Below, in pieces: positions 173 through 37,800 of a stretch of DNA of 64,000 bases. The position numbers were made by a program, and so were the translations under genes. Source of the stretch: Acidobacteriota bacterium (lineage in GTDB: Bacteria; Acidobacteriota; Thermoanaerobaculia; Multivoradales; JBCCEF01); assembly GCA_039028635.1 (NCBI GenBank), contig JBCCHV010000019.1, forward strand, positions 28,343-92,342, given 5' to 3'. The notes below the pieces were generated by a model that was not told the DNA's origin, searched no databases, and worked only from the letters and a program-made list of their open reading frames with translations. Numbering within the stretch: position 1 is the stretch's first letter; each line of letters starts with the position of its first letter.

Positions 173-973
173 CTAGCCGTAGCGCCCTTCGATGTAGTCG
201 GCGGTCTCCTGCTCTCGCGGGGTGACGAACATCTCTTCGGTGGCGGTGTGCTCGACCACTTTGCCGAGGAGCATGAAGATGCACTCTTCGCTGGCCCGCC
301 GCGCCTGCGCCATGTTGTGGGTGACGATCAGGATGGTGTAGTCACCCTTGAGATCCCAGAGCAGCTCCTCGACGGCTTCGGTGCCGGCGGGATCGAGGGC
401 CGAGCAGGGCTCGTCCATCAACAGCACCGTCGGCTTGTTGGGCAGCAAGCGGGCGATGCAGAGCTTCTGCTGCTCCTCGAGGGAGAGCGCCGTCGCTTCG
501 CTCCGCAAGCGATCCTTGACCTTGTCCCACAGCAGTACCTGGCGGAGGGCACCCTCGACGATCTCGTCCTCCTGAGATCGACTGAGCTTCTCCCCCTTCT
601 CGATAGCCAGGCGACTGCCGAACAGAACGTTGTCGCGGATCGACAGGGGCAGCGGATTGGGGCGCTGGAACACCATCCCCACCTGCCGCCGCACTTGGAC
701 TTTTTCAACCGTCGGATCGTAGATGTCGTGGCCGAGCACGTGGATGCTGCCGGTGGTTCGCACGTAGCCGAGGCGCTCGTTGATGCGGTTGACGCTGCGC
801 AGAAAGGTCGACTTGCCGCAGCCGGACGGCCCGATCAGCGACGTGATGGCCCCGGCCCGGATGTCGAGGTCGACATCGAAGAGAGCCTGGAAGGTGCCGT
901 ACCAGAGGTTGAGGTCACGGGTCCGAATGGCGAGCTCGGCAGCGTCCTGCGGGGTGGTTTCGGAATCAGCCAA
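173..973 (-). CDS. pstB: Phosphate ABC transporter ATP-binding protein PstB (distal of two tandem copies)
   Basis: 266 aa; Walker A GPSGCGKST, ABC signature and PstB-family N-terminus (LNLWYG...); its start overlaps the upstream pstB stop. Confidence 0.9.
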   Translation of the reverse strand: MADSETTPQDAAELAIRTRDLNLWYGTFQALFDVDLDIRAGAITSLIGPSGCGKSTFLRSVNRINERLGYVRTTGSIHVLGHDIYDPTVEKVQVRRQVGMVFQRPNPLPLSIRDNVLFGSRLAIEKGEKLSRSQEDEIVEGALRQVLLWDKVKDRLRSEATALSLEEQQKLCIARLLPNKPTVLLMDEPCSALDPAGTEAVEELLWDLKGDYTILIVTHNMAQARRASEECIFMLLGKVVEHTATEEMFVTPREQETADYIEGRYG

Positions 974-1751
974 AGCGCCCCTCCAGGTAGTCGCGGGTGC
1001 GGGTGTCCTCGACCTCGCCTTCGAACAGGGCCTCGGTCTCCCCCACCTCCACCAGCTCGCCGGTGAGGAAGAACGCGGTGCGATCGGCGAGGCGGCGGGC
1101 CTGCTGCACCAGATTGGTCACCAGCACGATGGTGATCTCGCTCTTGAGCTCCTTGAGGACATCTTCGATGCGCATGGTGGTCACCGGATCGACGGCGATC
1201 GAAAACTCGTCGAGGAGCAGCAGCTCGGGGTCCTGGGACAGGGCCCGGGCAATGGTCAAGCGCTGCTGCTGGCCGCCGGAGAGCAAACTGCCGAGGGAGT
1301 CGAGACGGTCCTTGACCTCATCCCACAGAGCGGCTCGGTGCAAACAGCGTTCCACCACCACGTCGAGATCCGCCTTGGCGCGCACGCCGGCCAGCCGCGG
1401 CGCCAGGGAGACGTTGTCGTAGATGGTCATCGGCAGCCCCACCGGCAGCGGAAACACCACCCCGATGCGGCTGCGCAGGGCATAGACGTTGCGCCAGCGG
1501 CGAATGTCCCGGCCGTTGAAGCGAATCGAGCCGTCGACCCGCATGCCAGCGGTGAACAGGTCCATGCGGTTGAGGGCGCGCAGGAACGAGGTCTTGCCGC
1601 TGTTGGCCGGCCCGACGACGCCGAAGATCTCGTTCTCGCGGATCTCCAGGTCGACCCCGCCGAGGGCGAGGTGCGAGCCGTAGCGAATCGACAGCCCTTC
1701 GACCTCGACCTTGGGCCGGTCCGGCGCCGCCTCGGAAGCCACCGCTACCAC
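966..1751 (-). CDS. pstB: Phosphate ABC transporter ATP-binding protein PstB paralog (proximal copy, variant Walker A GPANSGKTS)
   Basis: 261 aa with full ABC ATPase motifs (LSGGQQQR, D-loop) and PstB-like length; start overlaps pstA stop. Confidence 0.85.
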   Translation of the reverse strand: MVAVASEAAPDRPKVEVEGLSIRYGSHLALGGVDLEIRENEIFGVVGPANSGKTSFLRALNRMDLFTAGMRVDGSIRFNGRDIRRWRNVYALRSRIGVVFPLPVGLPMTIYDNVSLAPRLAGVRAKADLDVVVERCLHRAALWDEVKDRLDSLGSLLSGGQQQRLTIARALSQDPELLLLDEFSIAVDPVTTMRIEDVLKELKSEITIVLVTNLVQQARRLADRTAFFLTGELVEVGETEALFEGEVEDTRTRDYLEGRFG

Positions 1752-2614
1752 TTCTTCTTCCCCCGCAGGTAGGTGCGGAAGGCGATCGACAGAGCGTTCA
1801 TGGCGAGCACCATGCCGATCAAAACCAGGGCGACGCCGAAGGGCAGCCGCTCCGGCACCCCGGGCACCTGGGTCGAGATGACGAACAAGTGGAGCGACAT
1901 CGCCATGGTCTGGTCGAAGACGCTCTGCGGCAAGAAGGGCAAGAAGAAGGCCGCGCCGGTGAACATGATTGGCGCGGTCTCACCGGTGGTGCGCGAGACC
2001 TCCAGGATGACGCCGGTCAGGATGCCGCTGATCGAGTTCGGCAGCACCACGTGGCGGATCGTCTGCCAGCGCGTCGCGCCCATATTCCAGCAGGCCTCGC
2101 GAAAGGCCTGCGGCACCGCCTGCATCGACTCCCGGGCCGACACGATCACCACTGGCAGAGTCATCACCGCCAACGTCAGGCTGGCCGCCAAGATGCTGGT
2201 TCCGAAGCGGAAGAAGAGCACGAAGGCACCGACGCCGAAGAGGGCGTGAACGATCGACGGCACGCCGGCGAGGTTGATGATCGCCAGGTTGATGGAGCGG
2301 GTCAGCCAGTTGTCCGGGGCGTACTCGCTGAGGTAGAGGGCGGCCGCCACGCCGATCGGCACCGAGGCCAGCAGCGCCACCGCCACCAGCCAGACGGTCC
2401 CCACCAGGGCCGGGAAGATTCCGCCGGCGGTCATGCCATCCTTGGGCTCCGTGAAAAGGAAGTCGATCGACAGCACCGGACCGCCTTCCCACAGCAAGAC
2501 CCCGAGGATGATGATCACCGGCAGGATCAGCACCACCGTCATCCACAGGAAGAGGAGCTTGTAGAGGCGCTCGATCTTCTGATTTCTTTGGTCGAGATGG
2601 GTTGCCGCGAACAT
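1745..2614 (-). CDS. pstA: Phosphate ABC transporter permease PstA
   Basis: 289 aa polytopic membrane protein with the PstA-family EAA-loop region; sits between pstC and pstB. Confidence 0.9.
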   Translation of the reverse strand: MFAATHLDQRNQKIERLYKLLFLWMTVVLILPVIIILGVLLWEGGPVLSIDFLFTEPKDGMTAGGIFPALVGTVWLVAVALLASVPIGVAAALYLSEYAPDNWLTRSINLAIINLAGVPSIVHALFGVGAFVLFFRFGTSILAASLTLAVMTLPVVIVSARESMQAVPQAFREACWNMGATRWQTIRHVVLPNSISGILTGVILEVSRTTGETAPIMFTGAAFFLPFLPQSVFDQTMAMSLHLFVISTQVPGVPERLPFGVALVLIGMVLAMNALSIAFRTYLRGKKKW

Positions 2615-2620
2615 GGCGCG

Positions 2621-3523
2621 CTACCTCTTGCGGATACCGCGGACCACGAGGTCGGCGGTCAGGTTGATGACGAAGGTGACGATGAAGAGCAGGATGCCGA
2701 GGGTAAAGAGAGCGCCGTAGTGATCCGATCCGACGGCCGTTTCGCCGAGCTCGGCGGCGATGGTGGCGGTCAGCGCGCGCACCGAGTCGAAGACGCTGGT
2801 CGGCAAATTCACCGAATGGCCGCTCGCCATCAACACCGCCATGGTCTCGCCGAAGCCTCGCCCCACGCCGAGCAGCACCGCCGCCACCAGGCCGTTCTTG
2901 GCCGCCGGCAGCACCACCCGGGAAATCACCTGCCAGCGCGTCGCGCCGAGCGCTTCGGCGGCCTCGCGATAGCTCTCCGGCACCGCTTTGAGGGCGTCCT
3001 CGGCGATGGTGGTCATGATCGGCGCCGCCATCAGGCCCAGGATCACGCCGGAGTTGAGGATGTTGAGGCCCACCGGCACATTGAACAGATCGATGATCAG
3101 GGGGTTCATGATGCTCAGACCGATGAAGCCCCAGACCACCGACGGAATCGCCGCCAGCATCTCCACCAGAACCTTGAGAATCTCGCGCCGCCGGCCGGTG
3201 GCGAACTCACCGATATAGATCGCCGCCCCGAGGGAGAACGGCACCGCCACCAGCATCGCCAGACCGGTGACGCTGGCGGTGCCAGCGATCAGTGCCAAGG
3301 CGCCGTAGGTCGGGTTGTGATCCGAGGTCGGGCGCCAGCGCGGCGAGGTCAGCAGCTCGCCGACATCGAGGGTCGAGAGAATGAACGGCAGCCCCTCCTT
3401 GGCGATGAAGGCGAAGATGCCGAGAATGAAGAGAACCGCCGAGATGCCGCCGAGGAAGACCAGCACCTGGACTCCCTTGTCGACATACCAGGCCGCCGTG
3501 CGACGATCTTCCGCCCGTTCCAC
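2621..3523 (-). CDS. pstC: Phosphate ABC transporter permease PstC
   Basis: 300 aa permease with PstC-like TM pattern and EAA motif (RYREAAEALGATRWQ). Confidence 0.9.
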   Translation of the reverse strand: MERAEDRRTAAWYVDKGVQVLVFLGGISAVLFILGIFAFIAKEGLPFILSTLDVGELLTSPRWRPTSDHNPTYGALALIAGTASVTGLAMLVAVPFSLGAAIYIGEFATGRRREILKVLVEMLAAIPSVVWGFIGLSIMNPLIIDLFNVPVGLNILNSGVILGLMAAPIMTTIAEDALKAVPESYREAAEALGATRWQVISRVVLPAAKNGLVAAVLLGVGRGFGETMAVLMASGHSVNLPTSVFDSVRALTATIAAELGETAVGSDHYGALFTLGILLFIVTFVINLTADLVVRGIRKR

Positions 3524-3525
3524 GG

Positions 3526-4614
3526 TCAGAGGTTCTCCGCCCCGCGCAGGCGCTCCATCAGCTCGCGCAATCGATGGGCCAGATCGCGATAGCAGTTCTC
3601 GAGGCGCGGCGCCGCGCGTTCCGGATCGAGGTCGCCGAGATCGAGGGCGACGTCCCAGGACAGCAGCACGGTGCGGAAGGGCACCTGCAGATGCCCTCGG
3701 CCGTCACCGGAGAGATCGACGATCACGTGGTAGGCCTCCAGCTCGTCGCCCTGCGGCTCGAGGGCTTTGGGCTCGAGAGCGGCGAGGTCGAAGCCGCGAC
3801 GGGAAAGAAAGGCGGCGACGCGCGAATCGGCGGCCGTCGCCGGCGCCCAGCCGGCAGAGGCGAACTCCCCGGAATCGGCGAAGGAGTCGCGGGCCAGGGC
3901 CTCGGCGATCAGGCTGGCGCCATCGTTGGCGGCCTCGACGAAGAGCACCCGAAAGTGCTTCGGGGCCTTGGTTTCGCCGGTGACGATGAAGATCGTCTCC
4001 TCGCAGAGGTTCTTGGCCTGGTCACTGACCCGCTCGAGGCCCTTGAGGGCGGCCTGCAGGGCCAGCAGGTCCTGCAGCTCCTGTTGCCCCTTTTCGCCGG
4101 CCTGCAGCAGGTCGGAAAGCACTTTGCGGTAGAGGGCATCGGACTGCCGCGCCATCGGCAGGGTGCCGCGGGCGAGGTCGCTGTTGCCCTCGCGGAAGGC
4201 GGCGATGGCCTGGCGCAGCATCGCCCGGCTCTGCTGTGCCAGCAGCTCGACGTCGTCGGCGAGGAGCTCCGGCAGCGGCGCCGAGATGCGCACCGCTTCG
4301 CGCGAGATGGTCACGGCGTAGTCGCCGATCCGCTCGAGCTCGAGGTTCAGGCGCAGCACCGAGGAAACGAAGCGCAGGTGACCGGCGCTGGGCAGGTGCA
4401 GGGCGACGAAGGAGTGGCAGCGCCGATCGATCTCGCGGCTGGCGCGGTTGATCGCGTGATCCCCGAGAATGGTCTCCCCGGCGAGCTCGAAATCGCGCCG
4501 CACCAGGGCCTGGACGGCATCGCCGAGGGCCGCCTCGACGGCCTCCCCCATCGCTCCGACGCGTGCCCGAATGTCCTCCAGGTCGGCCTCGAGGCGTTGT
4601 TCCAAATGACTCAT
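3526..4614 (-). CDS. phoU: PhoU-family phosphate signalling protein fused to a C-terminal degenerate LMW-PTP/ArsC-like domain
   Basis: Residues 1-215 carry two PhoU repeats (ELERIGDYAVTI and GLERVSDQAKNL). Residues ~225-362 have the LMW-phosphatase fold signature (VLFVEAANDGASLIAEA aligns to the V-C-x-G-N-x-C-R-S P-loop, but Cys and Arg are replaced; the downstream DLDP Asp-Pro loop is retained). Sits between pstS and pstC. Confidence 0.8.
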   Translation of the reverse strand: MSHLEQRLEADLEDIRARVGAMGEAVEAALGDAVQALVRRDFELAGETILGDHAINRASREIDRRCHSFVALHLPSAGHLRFVSSVLRLNLELERIGDYAVTISREAVRISAPLPELLADDVELLAQQSRAMLRQAIAAFREGNSDLARGTLPMARQSDALYRKVLSDLLQAGEKGQQELQDLLALQAALKGLERVSDQAKNLCEETIFIVTGETKAPKHFRVLFVEAANDGASLIAEALARDSFADSGEFASAGWAPATAADSRVAAFLSRRGFDLAALEPKALEPQGDELEAYHVIVDLSGDGRGHLQVPFRTVLLSWDVALDLGDLDPERAAPRLENCYRDLAHRLRELMERLRGAENL

Positions 4615-4728
4615 GTCAACCTTCTTCCTTTGACTTCCCGACGGCAGCGCCGGAGGACCAGCGGAGAGGTGGTCTCGGAGCCCGGTCGGTGAGCAGCGAA
4701 CAGCGCCGGGGCGAGCCCCGGCAGAGAT

Positions 4729-5643
4729 CTAGACGCAGTCGACCTCGACCGCCGGGGCGTAGCCCTTCTCGGCGATGATGCACTGACCGGTCGGGCTCAG
4801 AATCCAGTCCAGATAAGCCTTGACGGCGCCCTCCGGCTCGCCGGAGGTATACATGAAGAGCGGTCGCGCGATCGGGTAGGAGCGATCGACGGCGGTCTCG
4901 ACGGATGGTGAGACGCACCCGGATCCGGCCTCCTCACCTTCTTCTCCCTCCGCCGACTCGCCGGTGACGATGCACGCCATCTTGACGCCATGGGTGGCGT
5001 AGGCCAGGCCGGAGTAGCCGATCGCGCAGGGGGTCTTCTCGACCAGGTCGACGACGTCCTTCGAGCCGTGCATGTCGCGGGTGCCGAGACGGTAATCGCG
5101 CTCCTTACCGAGTACCGTGTCTTTGAAGTAGACGTAGGTGCCAGAGTTGTTCTGGCGGCTGACGATGACGATCTCGTCGCTGTCGCAACCCGGCACCTCG
5201 ACGCCGAGCTGGCTCCAGGACTCGACCGTCGCCCCCTCGCCGTAGATGTCGGCGAGCTGCTCGAGGCTCATCGTGTCGATCGGATTGTCGGCGTGCAGAT
5301 AGACCGCCAGCGCGTCATAACCGACGATGTGCTGCTTCGGTTCGACGCCGTTGGCGCGCGCCGACTCGAGCTCCCGATCCTTCATCGCGCGGCTCGAGCT
5401 GGCGATGTCGACGGTGCCATTGATCATCGCCGAGATACCGGTTCCGGAGCCACCGCCGGTAACCGCCACGGCGACGTTCGGAGCCACCTCTTTGTAGTTC
5501 TCGGCCCACGCCTGGGCGACGTTGACCAGGGTGTCCGAGCCCTTGTTCTGAATGATCGTGCGGCCCGCCCGGCTGCCGTCCTCGGCAGGCCGTCCACAAG
5601 CGGCGAGCAACAGAATTGCGCATACAGCGGCCAGGTGTCTCAT
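4729..5643 (-). CDS. pstS: Phosphate-binding periplasmic protein PstS (lipoprotein)
   Basis: PstS/PBP-family sequence; signal peptide with lipobox LLAAC. Start chosen at MRHL (GGAGG 7 nt upstream) rather than the ORF-track Met 6 codons earlier. Confidence 0.85.
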   Translation of the reverse strand: MRHLAAVCAILLLAACGRPAEDGSRAGRTIIQNKGSDTLVNVAQAWAENYKEVAPNVAVAVTGGGSGTGISAMINGTVDIASSSRAMKDRELESARANGVEPKQHIVGYDALAVYLHADNPIDTMSLEQLADIYGEGATVESWSQLGVEVPGCDSDEIVIVSRQNNSGTYVYFKDTVLGKERDYRLGTRDMHGSKDVVDLVEKTPCAIGYSGLAYATHGVKMACIVTGESAEGEEGEEAGSGCVSPSVETAVDRSYPIARPLFMYTSGEPEGAVKAYLDWILSPTGQCIIAEKGYAPAVEVDCV

Positions 5644-5697
5644 AGAGACCTCCAGGTTCATGATTCCAGATTAGAGAAAGGCTCAGAAGGCCAAAAA

Positions 5698-8124
5698 TCA
5701 AACCAAATCGAAGAGTCGCCCCAACAGCATCTGAAGCGGAAACCGCTGAAGACTACCACCCACGGCGGCGTGCTCGTCATAGACCTGCACGGCGTCCGCC
5801 TCGATGCCTTCTCCCCAGATCAGAACCGGCAGCGGATCGGCGGCGTGCTGACCGCTTTCGGAGAGGGTGGCGTGGTCCGAAGCGACCGCCACCCGGAGCG
5901 GCCCGGAGGTGCTCTCGAGCAGCTCACCGAGGGCTCCGTCGACGCGCTCGAGGAACTCCACCTTGAGATCCGGCCGGCGATCGTGGGCCGCGATGTCGGC
6001 CCCCTTGACGTGCACGACCACCAGGTCGCCGCGGCGCAGATGATCGGCCGCGAAATTCAGCTTGGTCGCCAGGTCGGTGTCGAGATTAGCGGTCATCGCC
6101 GGCGTCGAAACGATCTCGGCGCCGAGCCAACGCGCCAGGCCGAGCACCGTGCGATCGCCGGAGATGCAGGCCAGGCGTAGTGGATCTCCGCCGGACTCGA
6201 GAGGGATCAAGCGGTGGGGCCGGCCGGCACCGCGGGTCAGTACGGCATTGGCCATCGGCTGACCGGCCCCGTGGCGGCGGCGGTTCACCGGATGGTCGGC
6301 CAGCAGGCGACGCGCCTCTTCCTCGAAAAGCGCCAGAATCCGCGCTGTGTAGACCGCCCGCGGATCGTCCGGATCGGTCGATTGCGGCGTCAACGGACGC
6401 TGCCCGAGGGCCCCATCGCCGGGATCGCTGCCGCCGATGGCCGACGACAGTCCCTCGCCCCGGAGGACCACCGCCAGGCGATGCTCCGTCGCGGCCTTGA
6501 CCCGCACCTCGGCCTCGTCCGCCAGGCTGCCCGGCAGGGGCAAGCGGTCGAGCACGGCGGCGAGCTCTTCCGTATCGAGGCGAATGCGTCCGGCGCGGCG
6601 GTCGATCACTCGCCCGTCGGCGTCGAGGGTGGCGAAGTTGCCGCGCAGGGCGACATCGCCGGCGGAGAGCTCGACGCCGGCCCCGAGGGCTTCCACGGGA
6701 CCACGCTTGAGGGCCAGCGGAGACTGTCCGAAAAGGGCCAGGCTGCCGGCCGCCGTGTCCGGGACCACTCCCGGAGAGATGGGGTCGGCGAGGCCGCAGC
6801 GACCTTCCCGGGCGAGGCGATCGAGGGTTGGCGTCTCGGCCGCCTGCAGCGGTGTCCGCCCGCCGAGGGAGCGCACCGGCCGATCCGCCATGCCGTCGAT
6901 GATCAGCAGCAGGGTCGGCCCCTTGACGCTCTCCGGCTCGACCTCTTCCTGGGCCAAGGCGGGCAGCCGGCGTTCGAGCAGACCGGTGATCAGGCGCAGG
7001 CTCTCGGCCACCGGCAGCTCACCTCGGGAGGTGTCGAGGAGTGGCACGTCGTGCAGCTCCGCCTGCTGCAAGACGTGGTCGTGAATCGCCCGGATGGCGC
7101 CGAAGCTCTCGACGTAGCGTTCCGCCCGGCGCCCGCCGAGACGAGCGCGAGAGAGAAAGCGCGGTCGATGGGCCTCGGCATCGAGGGTGCCGAGGATCAA
7201 GGGAACTTGATACACCGCGCCCTCGAGGTCGCCGAAAGGAATCAGTGGCGGATAGAGATGAACCCCTTCCACCAGGACGCTGAGGTTTTCAGCGATGGCG
7301 CGTTCCACCACCGCCCGCACGCCGACGGCGACGCGCGTCGCCTGCTCCTCGAAGGAGGCCAGCAGGCGCTCTCCCCCTTCGAGACCGTCCGTCGCCGCGA
7401 CGCCGTCGGCGGTCTCGAAGCTGGATGTATGGAGCGCCGGCAGGATGGCCGAAGAGAAGACCATCCGCATCACCTGGCGAATGGTGTCGGTGGCGGTGAC
7501 GCGGTAGATGCGCAGCAGCGGCGCGAGCTCGAGGGCGAGGGTCGACTTGCCCGTCCCGCTGGCCCCCCCGAGGTAGATCACCAGCGGTCGCGGCAAGCGC
7601 GAGATCCGCCGCACCAGGCGGTAGCGACGGGCCGCGTCGGGCCCTTCGAAGCGCTCGAGGAGGGCGCCCATGCGGCGGGCGATCTCGGCGCTCGGCAACA
7701 CCTCGACGCCCTCCGCCCGCAGCTCACCGCGCAGCTCGACGACCAGCCGATAGGCGCGATCGAGGTCGACGCCGGCAGCGAGCACGCTGCGCGCCAATAA
7801 GCCACGAGAAAAGGGCTGCTTCTCGCCGTGGTAGACAACGAACAGGTCCGGCGCCGGCCGCGCCGGCAGGACCGCTTCGCCGGCCAGACCCTCGAGATGG
7901 AGGTCGACGAGGTCGCGAATCTCCGCCGTCGTCACCTCGTCGCGATCACCGAAGTGATCCCGAATCGCCCGCGCCGAGGCGTAGGCGCTGTCGAAGTCGA
8001 GACCGCGCTGCATCAAATCGTGGGTCACCATGCCGCGCAAGAATCGCTGTCGATTACCGCGCGAGGTCACCACCGTCAAGGCGCGGCGTCGGCCGCGCTC
8101 ACCACTGCTGCTCTGGCGACTCAA
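5698..8124 (-). CDS. Fusion protein: 2-phosphoglycerate kinase (ATP-cone + P-loop kinase) :: archaeal-type cofactor-independent phosphoglycerate mutase (ApgM-like)
   Basis: N-terminal half has the 2PGK signature (YLGGASGTGKSTLALELA...RVTATDTIRQVMR...LHTSSF). C-terminal half opens with the ApgM hallmark (LLLIIDGMADRP...TPL..A.TP.LD.LA..G..GL.DP). Its ATG overlaps the sixA-like stop (ATGA). Confidence 0.8.
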   Translation of the reverse strand: MSRQSSSGERGRRRALTVVTSRGNRQRFLRGMVTHDLMQRGLDFDSAYASARAIRDHFGDRDEVTTAEIRDLVDLHLEGLAGEAVLPARPAPDLFVVYHGEKQPFSRGLLARSVLAAGVDLDRAYRLVVELRGELRAEGVEVLPSAEIARRMGALLERFEGPDAARRYRLVRRISRLPRPLVIYLGGASGTGKSTLALELAPLLRIYRVTATDTIRQVMRMVFSSAILPALHTSSFETADGVAATDGLEGGERLLASFEEQATRVAVGVRAVVERAIAENLSVLVEGVHLYPPLIPFGDLEGAVYQVPLILGTLDAEAHRPRFLSRARLGGRRAERYVESFGAIRAIHDHVLQQAELHDVPLLDTSRGELPVAESLRLITGLLERRLPALAQEEVEPESVKGPTLLLIIDGMADRPVRSLGGRTPLQAAETPTLDRLAREGRCGLADPISPGVVPDTAAGSLALFGQSPLALKRGPVEALGAGVELSAGDVALRGNFATLDADGRVIDRRAGRIRLDTEELAAVLDRLPLPGSLADEAEVRVKAATEHRLAVVLRGEGLSSAIGGSDPGDGALGQRPLTPQSTDPDDPRAVYTARILALFEEEARRLLADHPVNRRRHGAGQPMANAVLTRGAGRPHRLIPLESGGDPLRLACISGDRTVLGLARWLGAEIVSTPAMTANLDTDLATKLNFAADHLRRGDLVVVHVKGADIAAHDRRPDLKVEFLERVDGALGELLESTSGPLRVAVASDHATLSESGQHAADPLPVLIWGEGIEADAVQVYDEHAAVGGSLQRFPLQMLLGRLFDLV

Positions 8125-8639
8125 GGTGCCTCCTCCCAGCGCTGCAGGATTTTCGGGGTCACCAGCCAGCGCAGCTCACCGCGGCCGGCCGCCGGCTCAG
8201 CCCAGCTCTCGAGGGGTAAATCGATGCGCGCCAAGGCCGCCGTCGGGAAACGAAAGTCGCCGCCGCCGACCAGGCGGCGCAGCAGCTCCGAGAAGGTCGG
8301 CTGGTGACCGACCAGCAGAACCCGGCGCAGGGAGTCATCGAATCCCGGCAGCCAATGCTCCAACAGGCCCTCGACGGACTCGGAGTAGATCTCTTCGGCC
8401 ACCGCCACGGGGCGATTCCAAGCCCCCGCCGAGGCCGCCAGCTCGAGGGTCCGCCGGGCCCGCTCGGCCGGCGACGCGATGGCGAGATCGGGCAACGGCC
8501 CGGCCGCGGCGAGAAACCGTCCGATGGTGAGGGCTGCCCGCCGCCCCCGAGGATTGAGCGGACGCTGCCGGTCGTCGTCGTGCTGCACCGTCCAGTCGGA
8601 CTTACCGTGGCGGAGCAGGAGTAGGGTTCGTCGCGTCAC
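8121..8639 (-). CDS. Histidine-phosphatase-superfamily protein (SixA / phosphoglycerate-mutase-like)
   Basis: 172 aa; RHG motif (LLLLRHGKSDW) and a conserved His further down (LLVGHQPTFSE); SixA-like size. Confidence 0.75.
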   Translation of the reverse strand: MTRRTLLLLRHGKSDWTVQHDDDRQRPLNPRGRRAALTIGRFLAAAGPLPDLAIASPAERARRTLELAASAGAWNRPVAVAEEIYSESVEGLLEHWLPGFDDSLRRVLLVGHQPTFSELLRRLVGGGDFRFPTAALARIDLPLESWAEPAAGRGELRWLVTPKILQRWEEAP

Positions 8640-8785: not shown

Positions 8786-10969
8786 GTGGTCAAGAAAACC
8801 AAGAAAGCCAAAGCTTTGAAGAGCACTGCCACCTCACTGGAGAGCAGCCCCCCGGAACAGCCGGAAGCCGTCGACGCGGAATCCCCCTCGCAGTATCTCA
8901 ACCGCGAGCTGAGCTGGCTGCGCTTCAACGAGCGCGTCCTCGAAGAAGCCCTGGACACCCGCCATCCGCTGCTCGAGCGGGTCAAGTTTCTAGCGATCTT
9001 TTCGAGCAACCTCGACGAGTTCTTCATGATCCGCGTCTCGGGCCTGCGCCGCCAGCTCGCTGTCGGCGCCCTCGAGCCACCGCCCGACGGCATGACGCCG
9101 GCGGAGCAGCTCGCCGCCATTCGCGAAGCGCTCACCCCGCTGATCGAGAGCCGCGCCCGCTGCTGGAACGACGACCTGCTTCCCAAACTGCGCCACCGCG
9201 GCATCCGGGTGCTGCGCTATGACGATCTCAAGAGCAAGCAGCGCAAGCTCCTGCGGCGCCACTTCCGCAGCGAGATCTTCCCCACCCTGACGCCCCTCGC
9301 CTTCGACCCGTCGCACCCCTTCCCGCACATCTCGAACCTGAGCATCAATCTGGCGGTGGTGATCAACGACCCCGGCCACGGCGACCGCTTCGCCCGCCTC
9401 AAGGTGCCCAACAGCCTGCCACGGCTGCTGCGCATTCCGAGCGAGGACAAGGCCGGCAGCTACCAGCGTCTCGGCCTCGAGCTGCCCCAGGCGACCCATT
9501 TCGTGTGGATCGAGGAGGTCATCGCCGCCAACCTCGACCTGCTCTTCCCGGAGCTCGAGGTGGACGCCGCCTATCCCTTCCGGGTGACCCGCGACGCCGA
9601 CCTCGAGATCGAGGAGGACGAGGCCTCGGACCTGCTGTCGGCGATGCAGGAGGTGGTCGGCCTGCGCCACTTCGGCTCGGTGGTGCGACTGGAGGTCGAC
9701 GAGCGCATGCCGGAGCGCATTCGCGAGATCCTCACCCGCAACCTCGAGCTCGCCCCCTACCAGGTCTATGAAGCCGAAGCGCCGCTCGGCATGTCCGACC
9801 TCTTCGAGCTCACCAAGGTCGAACGACCGGAGCTCAAGGACCCGCCGTTCCTGCCTTTGGTGCCGCCGGAGCTGAGCGGCGAAGAGAGCCTGTTCGCCGC
9901 CATTCGGCGCCGCGACGTTTTGCTCTATCACCCCTACGACAGCTTCACGCCGGTAGTCGACTTCGTGCGCCAGGCGGCCGAGGACCCGGACGTCCTGGCG
10001 ATCAAGCAGACCCTTTATCGGGTGGGCCCCAACTCTCCCATCGTCGAGGCTCTGATGGAGGCGCGCGAGAACGGCAAGCAGGTGTCCGCCCTGGTCGAGC
10101 TCAAAGCCCGCTTCGACGAGGCCAACAACATCGTCTGGGCGCGCGCTCTGGAGCGTGCCGGGGTGCACGTGGTCTACGGCCTCCTCGGCCTCAAGACGCA
10201 CGCCAAGATGTGCCTGGTGGTGCGCAAGGAGCACGAGGGAATCCGTCGCTATGTCCACCTCGGCACGGGCAACTACAACCCGGAGACGGCGCGCATCTAC
10301 ACCGACCTGGGCTTCTTCACCGCCGACGAGGAGATCGCCTCCGACGTCTCCGACCTGTTCAATGCCCTCACCGGCTACTCGCGCAAGGATCGCTACCACA
10401 AGCTGCTGGTGTCCCCCCACTCGATGCGCCAGCAGCTCCTCGACCGCATCCAGCGGGAGATCGACCTGCATCGCGAGAGCGGCGATGGCCACATCGCCTT
10501 CAAGATGAACTCGCTGGTCGATCGCGCCTGCATTCGCGCCCTCTACGAAGCCTCCCAGGCAGGCGTCCGGATCGACCTCCAGGTGCGCGGCATCTGCTGC
10601 CTGCGGCCCGGCGTGCCGGGCCTCTCCGAGAACATCACCGTGACCTCCATCGTCGGTCGCTTCCTCGAGCACGCCCGGATCTACTACTTCCACAACGGCG
10701 GCGCCGAAGAGATCTATCTCGGTAGCGCCGACCTCATGCCGCGCAACCTCGACGGGCGCGTCGAAGTGCTCTTCCCGGTGAGCGATCCCGCCCTGCGCGA
10801 TCCGCTACGGGACGAGATCCTCTTCCTCCACCTGCGCGACAACCAACAGGCCCGCCTGCTCGAAGCCTCCGGCACCTACCAGCGGCTGACGCCCGGAAAG
10901 CGCCGTCACGGCGACGACACCCAGAGCATCCGCCTCGCCGAGCGCGGCTCCTGGCACCTCGAAGACTAG
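8786..10969 (+). CDS. ppk: Polyphosphate kinase 1
   Basis: 727 aa; PPK1 N-terminus (YLNRELSWLRFNERVLEEA) and C-terminal PLD-like HKN motifs; divergent from the pst operon. Confidence 0.9.
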   Translation: MVKKTKKAKALKSTATSLESSPPEQPEAVDAESPSQYLNRELSWLRFNERVLEEALDTRHPLLERVKFLAIFSSNLDEFFMIRVSGLRRQLAVGALEPPPDGMTPAEQLAAIREALTPLIESRARCWNDDLLPKLRHRGIRVLRYDDLKSKQRKLLRRHFRSEIFPTLTPLAFDPSHPFPHISNLSINLAVVINDPGHGDRFARLKVPNSLPRLLRIPSEDKAGSYQRLGLELPQATHFVWIEEVIAANLDLLFPELEVDAAYPFRVTRDADLEIEEDEASDLLSAMQEVVGLRHFGSVVRLEVDERMPERIREILTRNLELAPYQVYEAEAPLGMSDLFELTKVERPELKDPPFLPLVPPELSGEESLFAAIRRRDVLLYHPYDSFTPVVDFVRQAAEDPDVLAIKQTLYRVGPNSPIVEALMEARENGKQVSALVELKARFDEANNIVWARALERAGVHVVYGLLGLKTHAKMCLVVRKEHEGIRRYVHLGTGNYNPETARIYTDLGFFTADEEIASDVSDLFNALTGYSRKDRYHKLLVSPHSMRQQLLDRIQREIDLHRESGDGHIAFKMNSLVDRACIRALYEASQAGVRIDLQVRGICCLRPGVPGLSENITVTSIVGRFLEHARIYYFHNGGAEEIYLGSADLMPRNLDGRVEVLFPVSDPALRDPLRDEILFLHLRDNQQARLLEASGTYQRLTPGKRRHGDDTQSIRLAERGSWHLED

Positions 10970-31022: not shown

Positions 31023-32789
31023 CTATTCCACCGCGGCCGACCAAGCCGTGGTGTTGCCGGTTTCGAAGCCATCGTCGAAGATCTCGCGGTTGCCCACGGC
31101 ACCGATGAACTCGTCGAATCCCAAGTCGAAGGTCCCGATGCCATTGATGTTGCCGGCGCTGTCGTAGCCTCGCTGCTGCAGGTCGATGTCGGTCCAGGTA
31201 GGTAAGAAGTTCTCGTTGCAGAAATCGATCGCGGGAGAGGTCGAGTCGAGGTGCAGGTTGCCGCCGTCGGGGTCCACGAAGCGCGGATCCGCGCCGACCA
31301 CCGAAACCCCCGCCACCATGTTAGTGGCGTCGTCCATCAACAGGCACCACCCGGTGTTGCCGGGACCTTCAGAACCCCGGGTGTCCTCCAGAATGCTGGC
31401 TTGGATGTCGATTGTCGCGCCGCTCGACGAGCTCGCCGCAAAGCTCCAGGCGAGCGTTTGACCGCCGCCGTTGACCAACCAGGCGTTGCGCGCCAGCGAA
31501 AGGAAACCGGCCTCGACCTGCGCTCCGTTGGCCGCCTCGAGAACCGCCGAACCACGGTTGTTCCAAAATGCCATGCCTTCGAGCAGAATGCGAGAGGAAG
31601 GTCCATTCGCGCGCATCACCGGTCCGGGAGAACCGCTGCCATAGTTTTCATTCACAAAACCTCGCGACAATTCAGCCCGGCCCCCGGAGTCGACATAGAG
31701 CGCGCTGCCGTTCAGGGCATCGCAGCGATTGCCGACCAACGTGTTGCAAAAGGGCGCCTCAGGACATGCCACGGAACTCGATCGATTGAGCCTGAGAGCG
31801 GCCCCGTCCACCACCGCCACACCGCCACCACCGAACAGAGCCTCGTTGTCATGGATCTCGAGATTCGAGGCTTGCGCCGTCGTTCCGGCTCCCTGGAGGT
31901 AGATACCGCCGCCAAAGTCGGCGAGGTTTTCTTGAATCCTGGTCGCCGCCACTGCATCACCTCCAGCGAATAGGTCAGCCCCTGTCGCCAAAAAGATTCC
32001 ACCGCCATTGTCGCTGGCCCGGTTTTGCGCCACCAGCGCTCCGGGACCTAATGCGATAGTGCACCCCTCGCTGGCCGAGATCCCCCCTCCGTTGACCGCC
32101 CGATTGCGCAGTACCCGACCGTTGATCTGGATGTGAACCCCATGACCGGTTCCTGCCCTGGAAAGAATGCCACAGGAGATACCGCCGCCCGACTGGTCCG
32201 CATTGTCCGGGCCCACGTTCTCATCGATCAATGATCTGAAATCGACCGAGATCGTCGCCCCAAAGGTCGCGCGCATCGCCGGCGCCCCGTGAAAGATCTC
32301 GACGTTCTCCAGATCGACGCGAGCACCGGAAATGTCCACGGCGATACGGGTCGAATCGTCGCTGGGGTTTTCTCCGACAATGAACAGATCGCGCAGAATC
32401 ACCCGACGCTGCTGGACACCGTTGCTCAGGATCGCAAAGGGCCCCCAGAAATTTCCATTGCGACTGCCTATGACCAGAGTCCGGTGTTGACGTGCATCTC
32501 CTCCACAGCTCAACCAGCCTCCACTGATGACCAAGAGATCATCGCTTTGAGCGTCGTTGATCAACACATCTTCCGGGAAGAGCTCGTTCGCCGTCAGACG
32601 GATCTCATGAGCTCCGGCCACGGAATTCGCCAGATTCACGGCGTTCTGGATCGAAGTGGCATCGCAGTCCGGGCCCATACCAACGCGATAGATTGCAGCT
32701 TCGATCGGACCACAGGCCAGCCCGGTCAAGAAGAAACCCAACAGAGCACCGACCCTCCGGAAGACGGTGCAGGATCTTGAGGTGAGCAT
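31023..32789 (-). CDS. Secreted right-handed parallel beta-helix (pectate-lyase-fold) protein, paralog 1
   Basis: 588 aa; signal peptide; many Gly/Asn-rich beta-helix rungs (NGGGISASEGC, DNGGGIFLATG, DFGGGIYLQGAG); conserved C-terminal module ...IFDDGFETGNTTAWSAAVE. Confidence 0.75.
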   Translation of the reverse strand: MLTSRSCTVFRRVGALLGFFLTGLACGPIEAAIYRVGMGPDCDATSIQNAVNLANSVAGAHEIRLTANELFPEDVLINDAQSDDLLVISGGWLSCGGDARQHRTLVIGSRNGNFWGPFAILSNGVQQRRVILRDLFIVGENPSDDSTRIAVDISGARVDLENVEIFHGAPAMRATFGATISVDFRSLIDENVGPDNADQSGGGISCGILSRAGTGHGVHIQINGRVLRNRAVNGGGISASEGCTIALGPGALVAQNRASDNGGGIFLATGADLFAGGDAVAATRIQENLADFGGGIYLQGAGTTAQASNLEIHDNEALFGGGGVAVVDGAALRLNRSSSVACPEAPFCNTLVGNRCDALNGSALYVDSGGRAELSRGFVNENYGSGSPGPVMRANGPSSRILLEGMAFWNNRGSAVLEAANGAQVEAGFLSLARNAWLVNGGGQTLAWSFAASSSSGATIDIQASILEDTRGSEGPGNTGWCLLMDDATNMVAGVSVVGADPRFVDPDGGNLHLDSTSPAIDFCNENFLPTWTDIDLQQRGYDSAGNINGIGTFDLGFDEFIGAVGNREIFDDGFETGNTTAWSAAVE

Positions 32790-32906: not shown

Positions 32907-34673
32907 CTACTCCACCGCCGCTGACCAAGCCGAGGAATCGCCGGATTCGAAGCCGTCTTCGAAGATCTCGCGGTTGCCCACGGCACCGACGAACTCGTCG
33001 AATCCCAAGTCGAAGGTCCCGATGCCGTTGATGTTGCCGGCGCTGTCGTAGCCTCGCTGCTGCAGGTCGATGTCGGTCCAGGCGGGAAAGAAGTTCTCAT
33101 TGCAGAAATCGATCGCCGGCGAGGTCGAGTCGAGGTGCAGGTTGCCGTCGTCGGGGTCCACGAAGCGCGGATCCGCCCCGACCACCGAAACCCCCGCCAC
33201 CATATTGGTGGCGTCGTCCATCAGCAGGCACCACCCGGTGTTGCCGGGACCGGCAGAACCCCGGGTGTCCTCCAGAATGCTGGCTTGGATGTCGATTGTC
33301 GCGCCGCTCGACGAGCTCGCCGCAAAGCTCCAGGCGAGCGTTTGACCGCCGCCGTTGACCAACCAGGCGTTGCGCGCCAGCGAGAGGAAACCGGCCTCGA
33401 CAGTCGCCTCGTGGACCGCCTCCAGCACCGCCGAGCCACGGTTGTTCCAAAACGCCACCCCTTCGAGCCGCAGGTGCGAGAAGGCTCCCTCGACCCGAAT
33501 CACCGGCCCCGGTGAAGGAGAACCCACGTTTTGGTTGACGAAGGCGCGCGAAATCTCGGCACGCCCCCCGGGGGCGACGTACAGGGCACTGCCATTGAGC
33601 GCATTGCAGCGATTGCCGACCAAGGTGTTGCAGTACGGCGCGTCGGGGCAGCTCACCGCACTCGACCGGTTGAGCCTCAACAGGGCATTCTGATTCACCA
33701 GCACCCCGCCACCGCCGAAGAGGGCCTCGTTGCCGTGGATCTCGAGGTTCGAGGCTTGCGCCGTCGTTCCCGAGCTTCGCAGGTAGAGCCCGCCGCCATA
33801 ATCCGCCAGGTTGGAGTGGATCCTGACCGTCGAAACAGAGTCGCCGCCGGCAAAGAGATCGGCACCGGTCTCCAGATAGAGGCCACCGCCACTTCCGCTA
33901 GCTTCGTTGGAATGGACGAAGGCTCCCGGCTCCAGAACGACCGTACAGCCGTGGCGGGCCAAGATGCCCGCTCCATTCACCGCTCGATTGAGCTGCACCC
34001 GACCGCGAATTCGCACCACGGTGTTCTCACCGCTGTTCGCGTCGGAACGGGAGCCACAGGAGATCCCCCCTCCGAGGAATTGATCATTGTCCGGCGAAAA
34101 ATTCTCCGAGATGGTCGAGGCGGAGTCAACGAAGACGTTGGCCCCGAAGAGCGCCTGAAGTCCCGGTGATCCATGGTAAATAATCGACGACTCGAGCTCG
34201 ACCCTGCCCCCCCGGACATCCACCGCGACCCGGGTCAGCTCCTCACCGGGAGTCAGGGTGAGCCATTCGCCCACGATGAACAGGTTGCGCAGAATCACTC
34301 TGCGCTGCGGCGCACCGAGATCGGATCTGGCGATTTGCAACGGCCCCCAGGTGTTGCCGTTGGGCAACCCCGCGATCCCCGTATCCCCGGACGCCGTCGA
34401 GCTGGTGCAACGGTTCCAGCCACCGCTCAAGACCAACCGAGCCGCGTTGATGTCGTTGTCGATTCGGACATCCTCGCGAGCGAGCTCGTTCTCCGTCAGG
34501 CGAATTTCGTGCTCGCCCGGAGCATTCGCCCATTCGACCGCCTGCTGGACCGAGGACGTATCGCAACCGGCACCGGTGCCGACGCGAAAAATGGCGCCCT
34601 CGGCGGAACCGCCAAATCCCAGGGCACCCGCCGCCAGCAAGAATCCGCAGGCACTTTTCAAGCATCCAGACAT
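32907..34673 (-). CDS. Secreted right-handed parallel beta-helix protein, paralog 2
   Basis: 588 aa; same architecture as paralog 1. The C-terminal ~190 aa are nearly identical and the N-terminal part is about 60% identical. Confidence 0.75.
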   Translation of the reverse strand: MSGCLKSACGFLLAAGALGFGGSAEGAIFRVGTGAGCDTSSVQQAVEWANAPGEHEIRLTENELAREDVRIDNDINAARLVLSGGWNRCTSSTASGDTGIAGLPNGNTWGPLQIARSDLGAPQRRVILRNLFIVGEWLTLTPGEELTRVAVDVRGGRVELESSIIYHGSPGLQALFGANVFVDSASTISENFSPDNDQFLGGGISCGSRSDANSGENTVVRIRGRVQLNRAVNGAGILARHGCTVVLEPGAFVHSNEASGSGGGLYLETGADLFAGGDSVSTVRIHSNLADYGGGLYLRSSGTTAQASNLEIHGNEALFGGGGVLVNQNALLRLNRSSAVSCPDAPYCNTLVGNRCNALNGSALYVAPGGRAEISRAFVNQNVGSPSPGPVIRVEGAFSHLRLEGVAFWNNRGSAVLEAVHEATVEAGFLSLARNAWLVNGGGQTLAWSFAASSSSGATIDIQASILEDTRGSAGPGNTGWCLLMDDATNMVAGVSVVGADPRFVDPDDGNLHLDSTSPAIDFCNENFFPAWTDIDLQQRGYDSAGNINGIGTFDLGFDEFVGAVGNREIFEDGFESGDSSAWSAAVE

Positions 34674-34865
34674 AGCATTCTCCCAGGCGAGATAGGGTTG
34701 ACTGCACGGCCCTCGAGGGGCTCCAACGCTCTTTCCTGGACCGTCGCTCGTACTCGGCGGGTGTTACGCCTATACTCTCGAGAACTCCTCCAAGCCCCGA
34801 TGACACACTTCGCTCCATCCCCCCGAGAGACTTCGAAAGGGACCTCGGAGAGCCGCCAGCAAGTG

Positions 34866-37800
34866 ATGCCAGGCCAGGTCCGATGGCTCCGGGCACTGCT
34901 GGGGGCCGCGCTGTTGGCAGCGGGCCCTCTGGTGGCGCAAGCCCCCTTGCCCGCGGCGGGCGGTGTCCTCGACCTCGACCTCGATGCCGGCGAGGAACGG
35001 GCCTTCTCGGTCCCGTTATCGGCCGGAGAGCTCCTCCATGTCGTGGTCGAGCAGAGGACCGCAAACGTCGAGCTGGAGCTGTTCGAGGCTGCCACTTCGG
35101 TGAGACGCACCGACCTCCGACCCTGGGCCTGGGGCGAGGAGTTCCTGTTCGCCCTGCCGACGGAGGAGACGCTCTATCGGCTGGTGGTTCGATCGCTGAG
35201 CAGCCGCGCTGGCAGCGCTCGCCTGCGCGTCGCAAGTCGTCGCCTCGCCAGCAGCCGAGACCGGCTACGCTTCGAAGCCGAGTCCGCCTACGCTTCCACC
35301 CGCTTCACCCGCGCCCAACGGGGCCTGGGGCTGGTGACCGACCAATGGGTCCAGCGGGCCGAACGAGCCGCCCGGATGTTCGAGGCTCTCGATCTCCCGG
35401 AGCGGCAGGCCTTCGCCCTCAAGCGGGTGGGCGACCTCCAAATTCAGCTCGGACGCCCACTCGACGCCCTGGCTCCGCTCGAAGAGGCCATCGCCATCGC
35501 CCAACGCGACGGCTACCCCTGGGCCGAGTGCCGAGCGCGGCTCACCTGGGCGGAGGCGGTCTACGCCCGCAGCGTCGATGAAGCGCTGGCCGAGGAGGAG
35601 CGCATTCTCTCCCTGACCGCCGCCGGAAACCTCCTTCCCTGCCAGCTATCGGTGATCCGTCTCCTGATCTACGACCTCAATCAGAAGGGCGACCACCGGC
35701 GATCGATCGAGCTCTTCGAACAGGCCTTGCCGATTGCCGACCAGCTCGATGCTCCCTGGTACCACAGCGCCTTGCACATGAATGTGGGCAGCGCCTATCT
35801 CGCCCGCGGCCAACTCGTCGAGGCGATCGAGGTCTTCTCCATCGCCCACCAGGGCTATCGAGATCTCGGCGACCATCGCAGCGCCATCGCCGCTCTCGAC
35901 AACCAGTTGACCGCCCGCCGGGCTCTCGGCGACGAGGAAGGCTTGCTCGCAGCCCACCGGAAGATCGTTGCCTTCGTTGCGAATCACGGCGAGATTCAGG
36001 ACGTTCTCGGCGCCCAGGTCAACTACGGTGAGACCCTCCTCGACCTCGACCGGCCAGCCGCCGCCGAAGAGGTCTTCCGACGCGCCTCCAGGCGCGCGGA
36101 GGGCGCTCCCGTGGAGGCCCAGGCGCCGGTCTGGAGAGGACTCGGTCAGGCGCTCTTGGAGAGCGGAGCCCTGAGCGCTGCCAAACCCTTCCTGGATCGC
36201 GCACGCCGAGCTCACCAGGCGTCCGGCAACGTGCCTCGTACCATTCGCGACCAAGAGCTCCTGGGACGCTGGCAGGAGGCATCGGGCCAGCTGCAAGCTG
36301 CCACCAGCTCCTACCGAGCCGCCGCCGGCCGGGCGGCGCAGCTTCATCTGCCCCCTCTCGAGCTGAGCTCGCGAGTGCGGGCGGCGGAGCTCCTCTGGCG
36401 GCTCCAGGACCCACGGGCCCAGGCCGAGCTCAAGCGCGCCATCGACCTGGTCGAAGACGTTCGCAAGCGCCTCTTCACGGATCGCTTCCGATCCTCCTCA
36501 GCCAAGCTCCTCCGCCGGGTCTACGATCTCGCCCTCGAAATGGAGCTGTCGCCACGCGAATCATCGGCGACCGGAGGCCAACCTTCCGCTGGTCAGATCG
36601 AGCGCGCCTTCTTGCTCGCGGAACGCTCCCGCGCGCGCTCTCTGAGGGAATTTCTGGAGGCCTCCCGAAAAGCCGTCACGGCGACCATCGATCCACGGCT
36701 CGTCGAACGCGAAAGCCGCCTCCTCGAGCGCGCCGAAGGCCTTGCCCAGGAGCGCTTCGAGCTCCTTCAGGAGCCGCTCGATCCGAACCCCGAAAGGCTC
36801 TCTGAGCTCGATGCCGAGATCGCGGAAACGGAGCTCGGTCTCGAAATCCTCGCCGCCGAACGGTTTCGACGCGACCCCCGGCGGGCGTCCCTCCTCGATG
36901 CTCGGCCGCTCGACCTCACCGAGGCCCAAGAGAGCCTCGGTGAGCGCACCCTGGTTTCCTATCACCTGCTCGAGAACCGGCTGCTGGTCTTCCTGCTGAG
37001 CAGAGAGGGCCTGGCGATGGAGACGCTGCCGGCGGGCGAAGACCTCCCCGCCACGGCCATCACCCTTCGTGAAGCCCTGAGTCAACCTTCACGCTTCACG
37101 GCACGCTTCCGCGACGCATCCCTGCACTTGGGTCGTGCCCTCTTGACGCCTCTCGCCGGCCATCTCGACGGCAAACGGCTGATCATCAGTCCCGATGGTT
37201 GGCTGCACCACGTACCCTTCGAGACCCTCCTGCTCGAGGCACCACAGGCCGAGGACTCATGGGCCGACCTCAAATTCGCCGTCAAGGCCTACGAGATCAG
37301 CTATGCGCCTTCGGCCGGGGTCATGGCCAGCCTTGGGCAAAACTCGAGCGGCGAGCAGAAAAGCACCCTGGTCGCCCTCGGCGACGCCCTGGCGAACGGT
37401 GCGGAGCCGGTAACCGACGGGCCCGGAAACGCCAGCGGCAGGGGCCTCTTCGGCTCTTTGCCCCACGCTCGGGAGGAGGTCGAGAACCTCATCGGACTCC
37501 TTTCGCCCGAGAGCGTGGACCCCGCGCCTGTTGAGATTCAAGGCCATCTCTTCGTCGGCCACCGAGCCACCGAAACGGTGGCCCGCTCGGACCTCGCGAA
37601 GGCGGCTCGTTTCCTTCACTTCGCCACCCATGCCTTCGTCGATTCCGACATCACCAGTCAATCGGCGCTGGTCCTGACGCCGGATCACGCCCACGACGGC
37701 CTCCTGCAACTCGGCGAGATTCTCCGTCTCCGGTTCAACGCCGACTTGGTCACCCTCTCCGCCTGCCAGAGTGCCGTCGGCCGGCAGCAGAGCGGTGAGG

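Follow-up and report, generated by a model that had tools for sequence, protein, structure and literature searches.

A PhoU regulator fused to a predicted non-catalytic arsenate reductase-like domain is encoded inside a phosphate transporter operon with two dissimilar ATPase subunits

The window analyzed here is the whole 64,000-nucleotide stretch of an Acidobacteriota bacterium (NCBI GenBank assembly GCA_039028635.1, contig JBCCHV010000019.1, positions 28,343 to 92,342 of the forward strand). It contains a pst operon in which phoU is fused to a sequence coding for a domain of the low-molecular-weight phosphatase (LMWP)/arsenate reductase (ArsC) type. The fusion gene, named phoUX, lies on the minus strand according to the list of open reading frames (ORFs) and their translations, and a sequence resembling a ribosome-binding site, GGAAGAAGG, is found a few bases upstream of its ATG. 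The PhoUX protein is identical to NCBI MEM7049942.1, from a metagenome-assembled genome (MAG) of an Acidobacteriota bacterium, whose annotation is only "phosphate signaling complex protein PhoU", a database label that hides the difference. The genes and features of the operon are the following.

4729..5661, minus strand: pstS, phosphate-binding protein, operon gene 1 (TIGR02136, 223.5 bits, above the cutoff)
4705..4722, minus strand: GC-rich hairpin GCCGGGG-CUCG-CCCCGGC, perfect stem of 7 base pairs, 4-nucleotide loop (sequence and fold)
3526..4614, minus strand: phoUX, the phoU-LMWP fusion gene, single ORF of 362 residues with ATG start
3970..4614, minus strand: PhoU domain, residues 1-215, two three-helix repeats with ERIGD (94-98) and ERVSD (194-198) (TIGR02135, Foldseek, motifs)
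3529..3969, minus strand: linker and putative non-catalytic LMWP/ArsC-fold domain, residues 216-362 (Pfam LMWPc, profile matches, Foldseek)
3913..3945, minus strand: former phosphate-binding loop (P-loop), residues 224-234, LFVEAANDGAS (HMMER alignments to 3rh0, 3t38 and 1jl3)
2621..3523, minus strand: pstC, permease, GTG start (TIGR02138, 278 bits)
1745..2614, minus strand: pstA, permease (TIGR00974, 248.5 bits)
966..1751, minus strand: pstB1, degenerate ATPase subunit (TIGR00972, 276.7 bits, below the equivalog cutoff of 343)
173..973, minus strand: pstB2 (TIGR00972, 317.4 bits, below the cutoff)

The operon order is pstS, phoUX, pstC, pstA, pstB1, pstB2, all on the same strand. A preliminary description of this DNA had placed the fusion gene between pstS and pstC; this position is unusual and is conserved across the related loci presented below. 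The GTG of pstC is only 2 nucleotides past the phoUX stop codon, suggesting that the two genes are translationally coupled, and the genes further downstream abut or overlap. The spacer between pstS and phoUX is 114 nucleotides long and contains the GC-rich hairpin, which begins 6 nucleotides past the pstS stop codon. The fold of the whole spacer was no better than that of its shuffles (z -0.21), the local hairpin alone standing out; the hairpin may be an attenuator or a stabilizer and so adjust the level of pstS relative to the downstream genes, a suggestion left weak by the z-score. No second PhoU was found within the window, and no obvious PhoR or PhoB was seen among the ORFs at 11-31 kb, whose translations were read by eye with no profile scan.

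A word-indexed homology search with the whole protein retrieved at least 120 full-length relatives of about 363 residues with 48-56% identity, and an AlphaFold2 model of PhoUX was built on 120 relatives (predicted local distance difference score 93, predicted template modeling score 0.81). Residues 6-214 matched TIGR02135 phoU_full with 149.4 bits, the equivalog cutoff being 130.25; two PhoU repeats were recognized by Pfam (PF01895, E 8e-31), and each repeat carries an E-R-x-x-D motif (E94-D98 and E194-D198). These results are in agreement with the normal two-repeat PhoU of about 215 residues with metal-binding motifs that had been proposed. In the model, the PhoU half superposes on PhoU structures with template modeling (TM) scores of 0.87-0.93 (Foldseek; 0.91 to 4q25). 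With canonical PhoU (E. coli b3724; 4q25, 1t72, 2i0m), PhoUX shares the six-helix two-repeat bundle, the E-R-x-x-D motifs and the encoding with pstSCAB, and it differs by an extra domain of about 145 residues and by its gene lying between pstS and pstC, whereas canonical phoU follows pstB. The first acidic motif is invariant in the PhoUX family; in the second, Gly replaces Glu in about half of the family (57/120), which is a further difference from canonical PhoU. At the position aligned to Ala147, a PhoR contact in Salmonella and E. coli PhoU, PhoUX proteins have N, H, R or L with no conservation, in a region where the alignment is uncertain, and the position aligned to E. coli Arg184 is Arg in 87/120.

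The C-terminal part of the protein begins with a conserved linker, K216-x-x-K219-x-F221, in which position 221 is Tyr in the family, and its LMWP/ArsC-fold portion spans residues 221-358. Residues 223-353 matched the full Pfam LMWPc model (positions 1-144 of 144), narrowly passing the gathering score of 23.2: the whole protein scored 24.8 bits and the domain by itself 27.8 bits. When 30 C-domains of the family were searched alone, 23 matched LMWPc and none matched any other family. A profile made from these 30 C-domains gave as top matches solved arsenate reductases of the LMWP type (3rh0, 4.8e-9; 1y1l, 2e-8; 2ipa and 1jl3, about 1e-8, 1jl3 being at 2.2e-8), and low-molecular-weight protein tyrosine phosphatases (LMW-PTPs) scored far lower. 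The C-domain of the model superposes on ArsC structures with TM 0.75-0.82 and a root-mean-square deviation of 2.3-3.2 Å (Foldseek). Taken together, the Pfam and NCBIfam hits, the profile matches and the predicted superposition indicate that the fusion and its fold assignment are real, well beyond chance. The earlier assignment of the C-terminal 140 or so residues to this fold is thereby borne out, with a profile match end to end and above the gathering score. A superposition on LMW-PTP had been proposed at that time; the LMW-PTPs were weaker partners of the C-domain than ArsC.

By sequence and by structure, the C-domain is closest to the thioredoxin-coupled arsenate reductases (S. aureus pI258; B. 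subtilis 1jl3/1ljl; C. glutamicum 3rh0/3t38). The likeness covers the beta-alpha fold, the position of the P-loop, Asn13, the Ser17-Gln18-Met-Ala-Glu21 stretch, the Ser36-Ala-Gly turn and Trp101 (ArsC numbering); unlike these enzymes, the PhoUX domain has none of the five catalytic residues, is fused to PhoU and lies outside any ars operon. The LMW-PTPs and arginine phosphatases (Wzb, YfkJ, YwlE, human LMW-PTP) and LMWP-fold pseudoenzymes such as the trypanosomal mt-SAF26 (6sga) have the same fold with weaker similarity (TM 0.55-0.70, profile E from 4e-4 to 0.7). The PhoUX C-domain differs from the LMW-PTPs by the absence of C-x5-R and of the Asp-Pro loop and stands nearer to ArsC than to the PTP branch; mt-SAF26 and its like provide a precedent for non-catalytic structural parts with the LMWP fold.

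A word-indexed search with the C-domain of the query alone returned 1 match, the query being an outlier with few exact words in common with its relatives. An exhaustive profile search with the C-domain was carried out over 1.84 billion cluster representatives (50% identity clusters) and yielded 313 representatives at E<=1e-10. Among the best 150 of these 313, every protein that is long enough has PhoU directly upstream of the C-domain, the shorter ones are fragments, mostly cut at the N-terminus and many with a PhoU tail, and none has a Cys at the nucleophile position. The C-domain occurs essentially only as a PhoU fusion. The survey of PhoU homologs that had been suggested for this extension has thus revealed a conserved family, with at least 313 clusters in at least six phyla.

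Fifty genomic loci were obtained by scanning GTDB species representatives with one peptide pattern, and all of them come from MAGs; PhoUX is an unstudied protein family known from MAGs only. The loci are labeled Acidobacteriota/Thermoanaerobaculia, Planctomycetota, Gemmatimonadota, Myxococcota, Gammaproteobacteria and Anaerolineae, with single further labels of Actinomycetes and Enterobacterales. The order pstS, phoUX, pstC, pstA, pstB1, pstB2 is found in 39/50 loci; the remaining 11 are truncated at contig ends, carry frameshifts or are divergent, and none contradicts this order. The same six-gene operon is present in one 12-Mb genome. In the divergent locus (L040, 2609-6826), the genes after phoUX are an ORF with a weak permease match and divergent PstB-like genes (116 bits to PstB1 and 236 bits to PstB2), and this locus may be a remodeled version of the PhoUX system. 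PhoR-like kinases lie near 8 of the 50 loci, and signaling from PhoUX on to PhoR may be retained. The recurring neighbors are Pho-related, and no recurring ars genes were found near the 50 loci.

The former active site was examined by aligning 329 unique family sequences to B. subtilis ArsC and counting the residues in each column. In the P-loop alignment, VLFVEAANDGAS, Cys10 of ArsC corresponds to Glu227 and Arg16 to Ala233, and the structural residues Asn230 and Ser234 are kept. The five catalytic positions of ArsC read as follows.

Cys10, nucleophile: Glu227 in the query; Asp 298, Glu 9, other 3 and Cys 0 in the family (310 sequences with a residue there)
Arg16, P-loop arginine: Ala233 in the query; Leu, Ala or Tyr in the family, Arg in 23/329
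Cys82, redox relay: Ser302 in the query; Gly, Glu or Gln in the family
Cys89, redox relay: Leu309 in the query; Leu, Ile or Val in the family
Asp105, general acid: Leu324 in the query; Pro, Glu or Ala in the family, Asp in 23/329

As all five residues are replaced, the known mechanism of arsenate reduction should be impossible, and the C-domain is, on this alignment, a pseudoenzyme. The loss of the P-loop Cys and Arg had been noticed in the preliminary description, and a corrected alignment did not restore either residue; the loss of Cys82 and Cys89 is an addition to it. The description of the domain as catalytically dead also holds, the gene coding for a real PhoU joined to an LMWP/ArsC fold that is unable to use the known Cys-based chemistry. 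On the other hand, the Asp-Pro loop (DLDP) said to be retained is not the catalytic one: the Asp105 column falls on Leu324, and D328-L-D-P331 lies further downstream, where P331 is Gln in most relatives and where 15-18 of 120 relatives have a gap across 329-333. From the LMW-PTP signature, C-x5-R-(S/T) plus an Asp-Pro loop, only the Ser/Thr and the Asn are kept.

Outside the catalytic positions, the scaffold of the fold was retained. The Asn13 column contains 229 Asn and 42 Asp, the Ser17 column 224 Ser and 26 Thr, and the Glu21 column Glu in 174/329; Ser36 is conserved, the Ser36-Ala-Gly turn is kept and Trp101 is present in 325/329. These counts bear on the idea that the extension is an inert relic, i.e. 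the decaying remnant of a gene fusion without a role of its own. The C-domain is indeed less conserved than PhoU (mean pairwise identity 48% against 60%), and in several members about 10 residues are missing ahead of the last helix. However, full length is kept in at least 313 clusters at 50% identity and in at least six phyla, F225, A237, G255, W320, L352 and G358 are invariant, the linker is the best conserved part of the protein with 74% identity, and frameshifted or truncated natural forms of the domain were not seen apart from contig ends. A relic is highly improbable. The retention of the fold residues, the near-invariant carboxylate and the highly conserved linker rather point to purifying selection on the C-domain, as for a pseudoenzyme and not for a drifting remnant.

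The ATPase genes of the operon were then considered by aligning their motifs to E. coli PstB. In PstB1, the Q-loop has Pro where Gln is expected (VVFPLP) and the H-loop has Asn in place of His (VTNLVQQA), with an intact LSGGQ, and this holds for 42/42 orthologues. PstB2 has LSLEEQ or a similar sequence instead of the LSGGQ signature in 38/38 orthologues, and its Walker A, Q-loop, Walker B and H-loop are canonical. Motifs of the Walker A side are lost in one subunit and the signature is lost in the other, as in a heterodimer, and from these complementary defects a type I importer is predicted in which one ATP site of the PstB1/PstB2 pair is consensus and the other degenerate. One subunit without Q-loop and H-loop and another without signature is what textbooks describe for such a pair of sites. 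Each of the two proteins is orthologous across loci, and the pattern is invariant in about 40 operons of several phyla. Canonical PhoU, in contrast, is associated with a PstB homodimer. Two different tandem PstB genes are also found in the B. subtilis PstS-C-A-BA-BB importer, which has been modeled as PstBA-PstBB-PstC-PstA-PstS with no comment on a degeneracy of PstBA/BB (PMC11466899); the difference, the B. subtilis importer being compared by description and not by sequence, is that the degeneracy is here invariant across phyla and tied to the PhoU fusion. Nothing relevant on a degenerate or heterodimeric PstB with PhoU was found in the open-access literature.

To what extent the fusion accompanies this ATPase pair was seen in a metagenome scan seeded with PstB1, the loci being sorted into three classes by their identity to PstB1. 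In class I (73-81% identity), phoUX lies between pstS and pstC wherever the upstream sequence suffices. Class II (53-64%) shows the same complementary PstB defects, with PstB2 signatures such as LQLEQ, and the order pstS, pstC, pstA, pstB1, pstB2; phoUX is found upstream of pstS in five of these loci.

L071, 468-1622: class II phoUX upstream of pstS
L073, 2774-3991: class II phoUX upstream of pstS
L079, 3108-4250: class II phoUX upstream of pstS
L076 and L077, at the locus starts: fragments of class II phoUX upstream of pstS

In other class II loci, phoUX is absent from view (L080, L085) or a plain PhoU is present (L069, L082, L086). Some class II PhoUX proteins, e.g. those of L071 and L073, have kept the Arg in a D-x5-R P-loop, FVDQHNHCRSQMAE, which is one residue away from the ArsC loop and differs from it essentially at the nucleophile alone; judged from its loop, this subgroup looks like an evolutionary intermediate. 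Class III (45-51%) comprises 47 loci, in almost all of which the PstB motifs are fully canonical (L107 is without the Q-loop Gln). Most of these loci have a plain phoU after pstB, the others show no PhoU in view, and none has phoUX. In the scanned samples, PhoUX occurs only with the asymmetric PstB pair, and the pair can exist without PhoUX.

The charge of the P-loop has changed as well. The 8-residue loop is net negative in 255/309 members (83%), the B. subtilis ArsC loop being +1, and at least two acidic residues are present in 267/309 members (86%). The anion-binding loop has thus turned acidic, with a nearly invariant carboxylate at its center. This has consequences for the anion-sensing role proposed in the preliminary description, according to which the dead P-loop would still bind phosphate or arsenate and feed the cytoplasmic anion level into PhoU. 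Such an oxyanion sensor could find support in the Asn13 and Ser17 scaffold, which probably retains the loop geometry, in the Arg at the Arg16 position of 23/329 sequences and of the D-x5-R subgroup with phoUX upstream of pstS, in the possibility of a metal-bridged anion, and in the fact that Pst carries arsenate as well as phosphate. The proposal fits poorly with a carboxylate in the center of the anion hole in 307/310 sequences, with the loss of Arg16 in most members, with the negative loop and with neighborhoods in which ars genes do not recur. The charge reversal and the missing ars neighbors make the anion sensor the less likely of the ligand hypotheses, and we regard it as quite unlikely.

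The same acidic loop (D-E-x-N-D) could serve a cation sensor, perhaps with remnants of the ArsC K+ site (Asn13, Glu21, Ser36), by binding Mg2+, Mn2+ or K+; phosphate import would then be coupled to the cytoplasmic cation status. The frequency of acidic loop residues, the conservation of Asn13, Glu21 and Ser36 and the metal binding of PhoU proteins are compatible with this possibility, as is the response of the Pho system to low Mg2+ via PhoU (PMC9239213). Asp65 of the ArsC K+ site is however not kept, and the acidic positions other than the Asp at 227 are only moderately conserved. We regard a cation sensor as unlikely.

A third use of the loop would be chemical, with Asp227 as nucleophile in a weak phosphatase or as the acceptor of a phosphate sink, fed from PhoR~P, PhoB~P or acetyl phosphate. 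The near-invariant acidic residue stands precisely where the nucleophile was, the D-x5-R subgroup retains the Arg, an engineered Cys-to-Asp PTP keeps trace activity, and Cys-phosphorylated IIB domains of the phosphotransferase system have the same fold. Nevertheless, the general acid Asp105 is missing, most members have no Arg16, the query has the longer Glu, which changes the geometry, and the literature searched offered no precedent in the LMWP family. Asp-based catalysis is very unlikely.

We give about an even chance to a reading in which PhoUX is a PhoU-type regulator turned into a built-in, co-translated subunit of a distinct Pst importer, with the C-domain as a docking or regulatory module. 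It draws on the domain identities, the catalytic loss with a conserved Asp/Glu, the acidic loop, the occurrence as a fusion only, the fixed gene order, the invariant degeneracy of PstB1/PstB2, the absence of PhoUX with canonical PstB, the tight coupling to pstC and the separation from pstS. From this anatomy we infer that PhoUX should be a stoichiometric regulatory subunit in transporters of this type. A published study indicates that what PhoU and PhoR read is whether the PstB dimer is open or closed (PMC5775613); PhoU also has distinct surfaces devoted to PhoR, and it reacts to low Mg2+ (PMC9239213). In PhoUX, the ArsC-like domain would be a rigid, non-catalytic docking or regulatory module whose former active-site face, acidic and flanked by two conserved Trp, would contact a basic partner surface, most likely the asymmetric PstB1/PstB2 dimer, or would hold a cation. 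In this way PhoU could sense or slow down the transport cycle of an ATPase dimer with non-equivalent halves. It may also be that the Asp at the Cys10 position simply fills the anion hole of the P-loop and stabilizes the fold without any ligand.

Several points weigh against the built-in subunit. The contact between the ArsC-like domain and PstB1/PstB2 is a putative one; co-occurrence in an operon is a functional link and is silent on the partner contacted; and the P-loop carboxylate would fit metal binding or a role as phospho-acceptor just as well. The query is moreover an outlier in its family, with Glu and not Asp at 227 and Asp and not Lys at 243. Finally, the degenerate PstB1/PstB2 pairs without PhoUX or with a plain PhoU (L069, L080, L082, L085 and L086) mean that the extra domain is not required for the asymmetric dimer.

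A bolder form of the proposal, doubtful but conceivable, gives the ArsC-fold domain a dedicated task at the degenerate, non-hydrolytic ATP site of PstB1, which it would read or at which it would dock as a Mg2+/cation sensor, the fused PhoU, PstB1 and PstB2 being permanently assembled in an asymmetric machine that would gate phosphate import and signaling. If this is true, a permanent PhoUX-PstB1-PstB2 assembly would do what canonical PstB2-PhoU systems (two PstB subunits with PhoU) achieve only transiently, and a rigid natural complex could make the long-debated mechanism of PhoU structurally tractable.

An ArsC-family scaffold reused for protein-protein regulation is already known in Spx, which offers a conceptual analogy; unlike PhoUX, Spx derives from the glutaredoxin-type ArsC fold, has a CxxC redox switch still in place, and has RNA polymerase as its binding partner. 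No paper on a PhoU-LMWP/ArsC fusion was found in the open-access literature, absence there not being proof. The PhoUX locus represents a widespread, uncultured and unstudied version of the system, with a pseudoenzyme-bearing PhoU, probable co-translation with membrane and ATPase subunits and a dimer predicted to be intrinsically asymmetric. How PhoU links the Pst transporter to Pho signaling and brakes transport is still unresolved (PMC9239213, PMC5775613), and the PhoUX system is a natural experiment on which surface or state of PstB is read by PhoU; its complex may be more stable for structural work. It would also be a clear bacterial case of an arsenate reductase/LMW phosphatase scaffold turned into a non-catalytic regulatory module, with the charge of its anion loop reversed.

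Other genes of phosphate metabolism adjoin the operon in the window. A gene at 5698-8124 (minus strand) codes for an 808-residue fusion of a 2-phosphoglycerate kinase and a domain resembling the archaeal-type cofactor-independent phosphoglycerate mutase (ApgM). Homologues, fused or adjacent, stand beside a PhoUX-type operon in 16 related loci, e.g. L032 (11835-14348) and L056 (8610-11075); in L010, L035, L042 and L043 they form a pair of neighboring genes. This fusion may point to a phosphate-storage route of the 2,3-bisphosphoglycerate or cyclic diphosphoglycerate kind linked to the transporter. A gene of the histidine-phosphatase fold resembling SixA (8121-8639, minus strand; 48 bits, below the SixA cutoff) lies beside ppk1 for polyphosphate kinase (8786-10969, plus strand) and completes the phosphate-metabolism cluster; the same pair is also near the operon in L008 and L022. 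Further along the window, two tandem paralogous genes of 588 residues are present at 31023-32789 and 32907-34673 (both minus strand), spaced by 1884 base pairs, their 3' 300 nucleotides being 93% identical and the remainder about 75%. Their products look like secreted Gly/Asn-rich repeat proteins, and an ORF of 1288 residues (34173-38039, plus strand) comes after them.

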